Origin: a virus
Length of the DNA stretch: 10,158 nucleotides
Reading direction: 5' to 3' (one strand)
Virus record (IMG/VR): IMGVR_UViG_3300042731_004120
Part shown: in pieces, positions 4,826-6,727 of the stretch
Layout of the letters: each line of letters starts with the position of its first letter
How positions within the stretch are numbered: the stretch's first letter is position 1
Notes under the pieces: generated by a model
What the model saw: the letters and a program-made list of their open reading frames with translations, nothing else
Databases searched by the model: none
What the model was told of the DNA's origin: nothing
Translations under genes and position numbers: made by a program

Positions 4826-5549
4826 GAAAATCAAGCCCCCGATCATCGACGGGCGCGAGGTGAAAGTCGGCGACAAGCTGGAGGGCATCGTGGAGTGGAC
4901 CGGGCGCGACCAGTATCTCGAAGGCGTGGTGTCCGAGATCACGAAGTACGAGATCGTGATCGACACGCCGCAAGGCGAGATTCGAGCGCAGCGGTCGAAG
5001 GTCTGCGACCCGGAGCCGATGAACGTGTTCACGGGCTGTACCGAGTGCGGCAAGAACACCGACAGGCTCACGACGGACAGGGAGCTGCCGGGCAAGCGAT
5101 TTTGTGTCGAGTGCTGGGACTCGTATCGCAGAGCGCATCCCAAGGTCATCGTGCTGTGCGGCAGCTCGCGGTTCGTAGACGTCATGGCCGTGTGCGCGTG
5201 GCTCTTGGAGAAGAACGAGGGCGCGATCGTGATGGGGCTCCACCTGTTGCCAGCCTGGTACAGCGAGGAGTCGATACCGGACCACCTGGCCGAGCACGAG
5301 GGTGTGGCCGAGCAGATGGACGAGCTTCACTTGCGGAAGATCGACATGGCGGACGAGGTGTTCGTCGTGAACGTCAAACACTACATCGGCGACAGCACGA
5401 CACGAGAGGTGGAGTACGCCAAGGACAAGGGCGTTCCGATTCGCTGGTACACGGATGACCCGATGGGCGAGCGAGTCCAGAACATGATCGAGGAGTTCCT
5501 CAAGAAGCACGAGCGGGGCGACCCGACGATGAAAGTGAGCAGGCGATGA
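4815..5549 (+). CDS. Zinc-ribbon (CTECGK...CVEC) fused to a Rossmann-like DUF4406 / nucleoside 2-deoxyribosyltransferase-like (SLOG superfamily) domain. 244 aa.
   Basis: ATG 4815 has GGAGGG 5 nt upstream. 'KVIVLCGSSRF' then 'DEVFVVNVKHYIGDSTTREVEYAKDKGVPIRWY' matches the DUF4406 pattern I recall (IYxxGP ... CDAIYxLpGWexSxGaxxExxxAxxxGxpV). The stop overlaps the RtcB start (ATGA). The track's 4599 start is rejected. Confidence 0.8.
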   Translation: MDAEKIKPPIIDGREVKVGDKLEGIVEWTGRDQYLEGVVSEITKYEIVIDTPQGEIRAQRSKVCDPEPMNVFTGCTECGKNTDRLTTDRELPGKRFCVECWDSYRRAHPKVIVLCGSSRFVDVMAVCAWLLEKNEGAIVMGLHLLPAWYSEESIPDHLAEHEGVAEQMDELHLRKIDMADEVFVVNVKHYIGDSTTREVEYAKDKGVPIRWYTDDPMGERVQNMIEEFLKKHERGDPTMKVSRR

Positions 5550-6727
5550 AGTGGGTAAAGGAGACGGATTCAGGCGTGCCGATCAAGTCCTGGTGTGAGG
5601 ACTTGGAGGACAAGGCACTGGAGCAGGCAACCGACCTGGCGCGGCACCCGGTGGTGTTTCGGCACGTCGCATTGATGCCCGACGCGCACATGGGCTACGG
5701 GATGCCGATCGGTGGCGTGATAGCGTGCAAGCAGGCGGTCATTCCCTACGCCGTGGGCTCGGACATCGGGTGCGGGATGTGTGCCGCGAGGACAGACGTC
5801 TTGGTCGAGAGCGTGACCGAGGACAACCTCAAGGCCATCATGGGGTGCGTGCGCGAGAGCGTGCCGATGGGCGTGGGCGTGGAGCACAAGACCGAACAGC
5901 GATGGGAGGGGTTTGACGAGGGCCGAGTGCCGCTAGTCTCGAAGGTCCCCTCGTTGCTGGACAAGGCCAAGGTTCAGCTCGGGACGCTCGGTGCGGGGAA
6001 CCACTTCATTGAGCTGCAAGCCGGTGACGATGGCTACCTGTGGATCATGCTCCACTCCGGCTCGCGCAAGCTCGGGTACGAGGTGGCGAAGCACTACCAC
6101 AACCTGGCCGTCGAGCAGTGCACGCGGTGGCACGCCAACATTCCGAACAAGGAGCTGGCGTTCTTCCCGCTGCCCAGCCAGATGGGTTCCGAGTACCTCA
6201 AGGCCATGAACTACTGTCTGGAGTACGCGGCGGAGAACCGAGAGCGCATGATGCTGCGAGTCCAGGAGGCGGTGGCCAGCGAGTTCGATCTCGTGCGGTT
6301 CGAGGACAGGGTGAACATCCACCACAACTACGCTCAGTGGGAACACCACTTCGGGCAGAACGTGGTGGTGCACCGCAAGGGCGCGACGTCTGCCAAGGAC
6401 GGCCAGAAGGGGATCATTCCAGGGTCGATGGGCACGCCGTCGTACATCGTGATGGGCAAGGGCAACCGGGACTCGTTCGAGTCGTGCTCGCACGGTGCCG
6501 GGCGCGTGATGGGTCGCAAGCAGGCGTGCCGGACACTGACCGTCGAGGAGTGCGACAAGGCGATGGACGGGATTGTGTTCGGGCGCTGGAGCCGGGACAG
6601 GAAGGGCAACGTGGACCTGTCAGAGGCTCCCGGTGCGTACAAGGACATCGAGGCCGTGATCGACGCGCAGACGGACTTGGTGGCCGTTCTCGTGAAGCTC
6701 AGGCCGCTTGCCGCGATGAAGGGCTAG
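5546..6727 (+). CDS. rtcB: RNA-splicing ligase RtcB (3'-phosphate/5'-hydroxyl RNA ligase), 393 aa.
   Basis: Canonical RtcB motifs are all present and in order: 'LMPDAHMGYGMPIGGV', 'GSDIGCGM', 'GTLGAGNHFIE', 'HSGSRKLG', 'NIHHNYA', 'HRKGAT', 'IPGSMGTPSYI', 'SCSHGAGR'. GC3 bias is strong. Confidence 0.95.
   Translation: MKWVKETDSGVPIKSWCEDLEDKALEQATDLARHPVVFRHVALMPDAHMGYGMPIGGVIACKQAVIPYAVGSDIGCGMCAARTDVLVESVTEDNLKAIMGCVRESVPMGVGVEHKTEQRWEGFDEGRVPLVSKVPSLLDKAKVQLGTLGAGNHFIELQAGDDGYLWIMLHSGSRKLGYEVAKHYHNLAVEQCTRWHANIPNKELAFFPLPSQMGSEYLKAMNYCLEYAAENRERMMLRVQEAVASEFDLVRFEDRVNIHHNYAQWEHHFGQNVVVHRKGATSAKDGQKGIIPGSMGTPSYIVMGKGNRDSFESCSHGAGRVMGRKQACRTLTVEECDKAMDGIVFGRWSRDRKGNVDLSEAPGAYKDIEAVIDAQTDLVAVLVKLRPLAAMKG

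Follow-up and report, generated by a model that had tools for sequence, protein, structure and literature searches.

An RtcB RNA ligase and a probable RlaP partner in a DNA fragment of a likely jumbo phage: a predicted RNA repair pair

We analyzed a 10,158 bp stretch of viral DNA (IMG/VR record IMGVR_UViG_3300042731_004120, a contig from a JGI metagenome), in the following called the window, around a gene for an RtcB RNA ligase. The window holds 17 genes, with all convincing ones on the plus strand and tightly packed. Among the 16 junctions are four 4-nt overlaps, one 11-nt overlap and three of 0 nt, and most others are below 30 nt. GC content at third codon positions was uniform across the genes (0.77–0.91), and RtcB with 0.89 was not an outlier. 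Pfam scans covered the 17 predicted plus-strand genes, outside positions 1066–1199 (gene ending at 1478) and the minus strand. PHROG profiles matched RtcB, the nucleotidyltransferase RlaP, the thymidylate synthase ThyX and a small gene, g130. Two of these genes are central to our analysis:

3463–4473, plus strand: RlaP, RNA-ligase-associated Pol-beta nucleotidyltransferase (PF10127, phrog_388), probable RtcB partner
5546–6727, plus strand: RtcB RNA 3′-phosphate/5′-OH ligase (ATG to TAG, 393 aa, short bacterial type; PF01139, phrog_1075, PDB 1uc2/4dwq)

The RtcB protein matched Pfam family PF01139 with an E-value of 1.2e-109 and 367.9 bits (cut-off 27), i.e., residues 27–393 aligned with the complete model (positions 1–426 of 426). 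It also matched phrog_1075, 'tRNA splicing ligase' (E 1.4e-123), and the best match of known structure was RtcB from Pyrococcus horikoshii (E 1.8e-48). In the alignment with this enzyme, D73/C76, N152-H153, H170, H260 and H316 were found opposite P. horikoshii D95/C98, N202-H203, H234, H329 and H404. According to structural work on RtcB, D73, C76, H153, H170 and H260 correspond to the two-metal ligands and H316, in the SHGAGR motif, to the GMP-accepting histidine. The catalytic residues were invariant across an alignment of 16 RtcB sequences which included the proteins from phages phiCbK and RSL1. An earlier note, made from the DNA letters alone, had called this gene RtcB on the strength of its motifs. 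With a full-length family match and with every metal ligand and the GMP-accepting His in place, the call is confirmed. Scores against the NCBIfam E. coli-type RtcB equivalog (180.7, cut-off 407) and against TIGR03073, the PrfH-paired 'release_rtcB' (142.6, cut-off 271.8), stayed below the thresholds; the window protein is an RtcB outside both of these named subfamilies. Its active site is intact, and we predict from the sequence an active-looking ligase with GTP- and Mn2+-dependent joining.

The nucleotidyltransferase that the earlier note had seen about 1 kb upstream of RtcB is present as well and could be specified as RlaP. It is encoded upstream on the same strand, at a distance of 1,072 nt. 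The match to PF10127, 'RNA repair pathway DNA polymerase beta family' (E 4.4e-16, 59.8 bits, cut-off 23), comprised only the N-terminal half of the model, and that to phrog_388 (E 1.8e-46) ran nearly full length over residues 5–317. The Pol-beta nucleotidyltransferase motif GS...DxD...D, i.e., G21-S22, D33-x-D35 and D75, was invariant among seven RlaPs from RtcB loci. T4-type NrdC.11 shares 24% sequence identity with the window RlaP over 94% of its length, and a 2025 preprint has placed T4 NrdC.11 in the RlaP family (PMC12776372). The family owes its name, given by Burroughs and Aravind in 2016 (as cited in PMC7824862), to an association of its genes with those of RNA ligases. In vitro, two Pseudomonas RlaPs added 1–2 NMP onto RNA 3′-OH ends with preference for damaged RNA, and RlaP was required to restore aminoacylation of over-trimmed tRNA; the specific role proposed for it is to counteract nucleases that remove a nucleotide in addition to cutting (PMC12776372). 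RtcB and RlaP of large phages have been predicted to be counter-defence enzymes for tRNA and RNA repair (PMC7824862).

To place the window RtcB among its viral relatives, we used an alignment-based scan of IMG/VR, which gave at least 591 relatives where a single-sequence scan gave none. The best 80 of them served as viral RtcB loci and share 42–54% identity with the window protein; the RtcBs of phiCbK and RSL1 share 42–46%. A search with an iterated profile located a same-strand RlaP no more than 6 kb from RtcB in six of the 80 loci, and in L069 the two genes are adjacent. Of the 80 loci, 9 have a tRNA gene within 1 kb of the viral RtcB; the number rises to 16 at 3 kb and to 24 at 6 kb, and RtcB lies inside a tRNA array in L053, L087, L089 and L091. 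Viral RtcB genes in or beside tRNA arrays provide independent contextual support for a tRNA-directed role. For 44 of the 80 loci, we looked at the 136 open reading frames lying up to 1.6 kb from RtcB; terminase, portal and replication genes were present among them, and RtcA and RtcR were both absent. Other neighbors in this set were sporadic, namely RNA_ligase (2), Metallophos_2 (2), Band_7 (1), RlaP (1) and ThyX (1).

The closest relative of the window RtcB is 85% identical and lies on a 2.4-kb fragment (L124, JGI 3300009509) without informative flanks. The gene order of Zn-ribbon gene, RtcB and g6731 is retained there, which is not independent evidence because the fragment is such a close relative. 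The next RtcBs are 60–63% identical; one is on a 114-kb contig, and others come from bacterial chromosomes. In species-representative genomes, the relatives belong to Desulfobacterota and Kiritimatiellae/Verrucomicrobia (46–61% identity). The 21 closest bacterial loci had RtcA within 3 kb in 12 cases, RtcR in 7 and RlaP in 3. The window RtcB thus appears, as judged from these sequences, to be derived from a bacterial rtc-operon clade, with RtcA and RtcR lost. The closest chromosomal relative, from a Desulfatiglandales metagenome-assembled genome (L002), has RtcB (10001–11176) alone, with neither RtcA nor RtcR, and 1.7 kb downstream of a pair of a small protein and a PIN-domain (VapC-like) protein (7673–8262).

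We propose that RtcB of a large, probably jumbo, tailed phage and its likely partner RlaP form a two-enzyme RNA repair pair, and put the probability of this prediction at about 0.6. According to established RtcB enzymology, His316 would take up GMP from GTP in a Mn2+-dependent step and pass it to an RNA 3′-phosphate, with a 2′,3′-cyclic phosphate first being opened by RtcB itself. Attack by the 5′-OH end would then restore the phosphodiester bond. Where the nuclease had also trimmed the 3′ end, RlaP would add back one or two nucleotides (PMC12776372). The likely substrates would be tRNAs, or rRNA, that have been cleaved in the infected cell by host RNases of the metal-independent kind, such as anticodon nucleases, HEPN RNases or toxin RNases; mending them would allow translation to continue for the benefit of the phage.

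Several points weigh against this reading. The activity, the substrate and the host nuclease of the RtcB-RlaP pair are predicted only. The pairing is loose, because 74 of the 80 viral RtcB genes have no RlaP within 6 kb. Moreover, RlaP leaves a 3′-OH whereas RtcB needs a 3′-phosphate, a mismatch that was left open in the work on RlaP (PMC12776372). Pfam scans found no archease among the window proteins, and ARAGORN and Rfam found no tRNA, tmRNA or Rfam family (E ≤ 1) in the window, with the absence of tRNA being the point that counts here. Also, no capsid, portal, terminase or other virion or packaging gene was detected in the 10 kb with Pfam and PHROG scans. Finally, the nearest relatives of the window RtcB (about 61%) come from bacteria, the wider set (46–61%) mostly has rtcBA-rtcR stress-operon genes, and a general stress-repair role could simply carry over in this RtcB.

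The bacterial relatives lead to a different proposal, in which RtcB, together with RlaP, generally keeps tRNAs and rRNA in repair, phage tRNAs included, and no dedicated host defence nuclease acts as selective agent. Damage would then come from any cleavage accompanying the infection, e.g., by stress-induced toxins like MazF or by the phage's own RNases. The stress-repair operons of the close bacterial relatives (RtcA in 12 and RtcR in 7 of the 21) speak for such upkeep, and the tRNA arrays around viral RtcB genes fit it as well as they fit counter-defence. Against it stand the specific proposal of RlaP as antidote to trimming nucleases (PMC12776372) and the treatment of phage RNA ligases as counter-defence in PMC7824862. 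At sequence level nothing separates the two proposals, and we consider general upkeep unlikely, if well within reason, both as such and with these sources of damage.

A further alternative concerns the substrate. RtcB joins DNA 3′-phosphate ends in vitro, and the window RtcB is located among genes of nucleotide and DNA metabolism (ThyX and an NDT-like protein). It might hence seal 3′-phosphate/5′-OH breaks in phage DNA, or else mature split or intron-containing phage RNA. No tRNA, split or intron-bearing ones included, was found in the window, RNA is the only substrate of the RlaP partner (PMC12776372), and the tRNA-array contexts of viral RtcB point to tRNA. We judge another substrate of this kind highly improbable.

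Two further genes of the window bear on its origin:

7224–8054, plus strand: ThyX, flavin-dependent thymidylate synthase, 276 aa (Thy1, PF02511, E 4e-43, residues 20–200)
8551–10158, plus strand: homolog of the major vault protein (MVP), 536 aa before the window end (Vault_3, E 2.3e-10), possible SPFH-type scaffold

Since the window contains no hallmark virion gene, we infer its phage origin from gene organization and from relatives on viral contigs. In megablast, no GenBank phage was alike at the DNA level, and an exact-protein look-up gave no further contig. ThyX shares 64% and MVP 63% identity with the counterparts on the IMG/VR contigs L126 (3300017971_000004, 188.6 kb) and L144 (3300017963_000200, 146.8 kb), which have the same GC content, and the recognizable window genes other than RtcB have their relatives mainly on phage contigs of 100–735 kb. 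Around ThyX and MVP, L126 codes for an ARPP-1 protein, a Nuc_deoxyrib_tr-domain protein and a DHH phosphoesterase (4383–5360, 6420–7367 and 8888–9922). RtcB and RlaP are both absent from this region of L126, which makes the two genes look like a variable insertion in the ThyX-MVP region. Most likely, the window comes from the genome of a jumbo phage. The phage-type setting described in the earlier note is thus supported, with co-directional packed genes, no RtcA or RtcR and relatives on phage contigs. A standard rtcBA-rtcR stress operon on a bacterial chromosome had been named there as a finding that would refute the counter-defence interpretation; we looked for RtcA (PF01137) and RtcR (Sigma54_activat) among the 17 plus-strand genes with Pfam scans of the extent given above and detected neither, which leaves the interpretation standing.

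In principle, the DNA could instead stem from a bacterial chromosome, a prophage remnant or a mobile element, where RtcB would serve the cell, e.g., against colicins or toxin-antitoxin RNases. The missing virion and packaging genes would agree with such a source, as would the occurrence of 61%-identical RtcBs in bacterial chromosomes, including the one at 1.7 kb from the PIN-domain pair, and the finding that bacteria also have MVP homologs (10.1101/2023.11.10.566534). Opposed to this are the lack of RtcA, RtcR or any housekeeping gene in Pfam scans, and the strictly co-directional genes with overlapping junctions. Moreover, the nearest ThyX and MVP relatives, and likewise all examined relatives of the Zn-ribbon/NDT-like protein encoded upstream of RtcB, are on viral or phage-like contigs. 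A 63%-identical RtcB is found on a 114-kb contig together with RecT, YqaJ, DnaB and a lysin. We regard an origin outside phages as very unlikely.

Immediately upstream of RtcB, a further gene overlaps the ligase start:

4815–5549, plus strand: protein of 244 aa with a small beta domain, a Zn-ribbon (CTEC...CVEC) and a predicted NDT/TIR-like domain; its stop codon overlaps the start of RtcB

The gene starts at 4815 (MDAEKIKPP...), and a relative, P0122, begins alike. The ATGA overlap with RtcB described in the earlier note is real, with the stop codon TGA at 5547–5549. It does not bear the weight placed on it, as 4 of the 16 junctions in the window have the same 4-nt overlap, which is of an ordinary type. 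From the label 'Zn-ribbon-DUF4406' we could retain the Zn-ribbon and not DUF4406. Neither DUF4406 (PF14359) nor NDT (PF05014) gave a Pfam match at E ≤ 1 with the protein, with its C-terminal domain or with five relatives. The protein remained unmatched in PHROG and NCBIfam scans, and a PDB sequence search was uninformative.

The C-terminal domain (5115–5549, about 125 aa) belongs to a large phage family without a Pfam model. A search with it gave 599 matches at 60–70% identity, and the family consists mostly of standalone proteins of 135–150 aa. In 36 aligned relatives (48–68% identity to the window protein), about 20 residues are invariant, CGS, W, E, E, H, AE, H, K, D, N, Y, G and E among them. 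From its predicted NDT/TIR-like fold, we propose that the domain is probably a nucleotide N-glycosidase or transferase. Relatives of the upstream gene adjoin genes for RecA, AAA ATPase, UvrD helicase and DNA methylase, and one relative of the C-terminal domain is fused to a dATP/dGTP pyrophosphohydrolase domain. L126, the nearest related phage contig, codes for a true Nuc_deoxyrib_tr-domain protein after ThyX. No member of the upstream-gene family was found within 6 kb of RtcB in the 80 viral loci. Because of these replication-gene contexts, the pyrophosphohydrolase fusion and the absence near the 80 viral RtcBs, the upstream gene probably acts in nucleotide metabolism and not in RNA repair. 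As a conserved RtcB partner it was discarded, being absent from the 80 viral loci and from RtcB locus L001 and having other contexts elsewhere. The earlier suggestion of a multi-step set for RNA end-healing and sealing hence is supported for RlaP, a nucleotidyltransferase family linked to RNA ligases that recurs near RtcB; it is not supported for the upstream gene (0 of 80 viral loci).

ThyX marks a nucleotide-metabolism neighborhood, which is context. It carries a C-terminal extension of about 75 aa (about residues 201–276) beyond the Thy1 domain. In L126, the ThyX match comprised residues 1–210 only, and the extension had no significant tblastn match there. We see the ATGA-coupled gene, ThyX and the MVP homolog as neighbors in an accessory and nucleotide-metabolism region, not as shown parts of the repair pair. 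The remaining recognizable features of the window are as follows:

130–333, plus strand: g130, 67 aa (phrog_8389, function unknown)
1833–2414, plus strand: Zn-ribbon + DUF5662, HD-superfamily-like phosphohydrolase, 193 aa, weak candidate accessory enzyme
4544–4825, plus strand: small open reading frame of 93 aa, flanked by the RlaP and Zn-ribbon genes (open reading frame list)
8426–8550, plus strand: 125 nt between g8051 and MVP with three predicted hairpins

The contexts of the DUF5662 protein were mixed. Among three relatives, one adjoins an AAA_33 P-loop kinase, another is found with NAD-salvage genes at 5.5 kb from an RlaP, and the third shows neither context. With these contexts and an only moderate fold match, it was rejected as a firm repair component and kept as a lead. 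Homologs of g130 occur near RtcB in L125 (4234–4434, 72% identical; contig with 49% GC), 1 kb downstream of RtcB, and in L111 (7894–8133), adjoining RtcB; apart from L111, none of the 80 viral RtcB loci has one. The 93-aa open reading frame had no family match in any library scanned and no relative in the 80 viral RtcB loci. The hairpin stretch at 8426–8550 was predicted to fold with −41.4 kcal/mol (z −2.8; 1 of 200 shuffles as good) and matched neither tRNA nor Rfam models. Pfam, PHROG and NCBIfam scans detected no Pnkp or ATP-dependent RNA ligase among the window proteins, and PADLOC defence-system models gave no match in the window. Promoter-like and terminator-like sites in the window occurred in chance-level counts, and the only repeats were short matches at chance level.

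Three genes separate RtcB from the MVP homolog, which begins 1,823 nt downstream of the ligase gene. Full-length relatives (809–916 aa) contain Vault_3, MVP_shoulder and Band_7 domains, and their shoulder/SPFH domain would fall past the window end. GenBank phage matches were obtained only from uncultured phages of 462 and 735 kb, and IMG/VR contains at least 234 relatives, mostly on contigs of 100–436 kb. Phage MVPs were first reported for two gut phages in a 2023 preprint, and so far only for those (10.1101/2023.11.10.566534). In 48 of 82 IMG/VR MVP loci, tRNA genes lie within 10 kb of MVP and tend to be just upstream of it, counted without a random-gene baseline; with the same limit, 12 of 23 lineages (clusters at 65% identity) have a tRNA within 3 kb. 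In L007 (8679–9875), a phage tmRNA and tRNA-Pro immediately precede MVP, and L008 (9343–9551, 12767–19318) and L009 (8706–8780) are further examples of this tendency. Because a random-gene baseline is lacking, the enrichment of tRNA genes near MVP is suggestive only.

An MVP shell bearing SPFH domains might, like a vault, serve as platform or shelter for tRNA repair by RtcB and RlaP during infection. In Caulobacter phage phiCbK, a Band_7 gene is located one small open reading frame upstream of RtcB, with HD and PTH2 genes nearby; an adjacent Band_7 gene is found in 1 of the 44 sampled viral RtcB loci, and the tRNA genes within 3 kb of phage MVPs in the 12 lineages would agree with a platform as well. 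The reciprocal searches argue against it: 82 other viral MVP loci had neither RtcB nor RlaP at up to 10 kb from MVP, and the 80 viral RtcB loci had no MVP at up to 6 kb from RtcB. Moreover, no conserved protein neighbor of MVP was found, and ARAGORN and Rfam gave no tRNA-like RNA beside MVP in the window. A vault platform thus is a long shot. Even less likely is that the DUF5662 or the NDT-like enzyme turns the 3′-OH product of RlaP into a 3′-phosphate ready for RtcB.

Our preferred reading, RNA repair by RtcB and RlaP, has its nearest precedent in the jumbo phages described by Iyer et al. 2021 (PMC7824862), where both enzymes are encoded in a large phage, loosely linked on one strand, and are predicted to reseal and refill cut tRNAs. 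The window phage in contrast is uncultivated and distant, with at most 54% RtcB identity to the best 80 IMG/VR RtcBs and 42–46% to phiCbK and RSL1, and its 10 kb contain no visible tRNA, kinase, phosphoesterase or ATP-dependent ligase. With the bacterial rtcBA-rtcR operon, including the rtcB-rlaP-rtcA form of Pseudomonas (PMC7790460, PMC12776372), the window shares the RtcB clade at 46–61% identity and the RlaP partner found in some of these operons. It differs from them in having neither the RtcA cyclase nor the sigma-54 regulator RtcR and in an RtcB that scores below the E. coli-type cut-off and sits among phage-type genes.

Phage T4 repairs PrrC-cleaved tRNA-Lys with Pnkp and Rnl1, and the earlier note had drawn this analogy. 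The proposed purpose is the same, namely to undo anticodon-nuclease damage, and T4 also has an RlaP homologous to that of the window (NrdC.11, PMC12776372). The chemistry is unrelated, however: T4 heals the ends with a kinase-phosphatase and seals them with an ATP-dependent 5′-phosphate ligase, whereas RtcB joins 3′-phosphate and 5′-OH directly with GTP. The analogy therefore is functional only, as the window encodes no kinase-phosphatase or ATP-dependent ligase.

In phiCbK (gp238–gp240), an SPFH-containing protein is encoded near RtcB, and its window counterpart would be the MVP homolog. Instead of an adjoining 276-aa Band-7 protein, the window has a multi-repeat vault protein 1.8 kb away, and a linkage of RtcB and MVP occurs in no other MVP or RtcB locus examined (82 and 80, respectively). 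The phiCbK region (L014, 130647–143837) encodes Band_7/SPFH gp238, RtcB gp240, HD phosphohydrolase gp249, PTH2 gp253 and a cytidyltransferase, and this gp238–gp253 cluster looks like a tRNA rescue and repair island. RtcB2-PrfH in ribosome rescue and repair (PMC9304027, PMC9223846) is alike in using an RtcB-family ligase against ribotoxin damage. The window RtcB differs from it by scoring below the TIGR03073 cut-off (142.6 versus 271.8), and the window has no PrfH gene.

As a whole, the observation in the earlier note, an RtcB gene with its ATGA overlap and upstream nucleotidyltransferase, is confirmed, and its interpretation as tRNA-repair counter-defence is partly supported. The idea of a phage repair system of RtcB and RlaP is already published (PMC7824862), i.e., the window adds a distant example and no new type of system. 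A full-text literature search brought up no experimental work on an RtcB from a phage. What is more unusual here lies at the periphery, namely a phage vault gene beside RNA-repair genes and phage MVPs tending to adjoin tRNA arrays, again without a random-gene baseline. This vault-tRNA lead is the only part that could surprise. If true, a vault platform would extend the association of SPFH/Band-7 proteins with RtcB to true MVPs and would hint that vault particles began in RNA repair. The window thus stands as a distant, high-GC environmental example among the large phages with RtcB and RlaP. It offers a compact test case for whether a phage RtcB counters tRNA-cleaving defences and for how the 3′-OH product of RlaP becomes compatible with RtcB.

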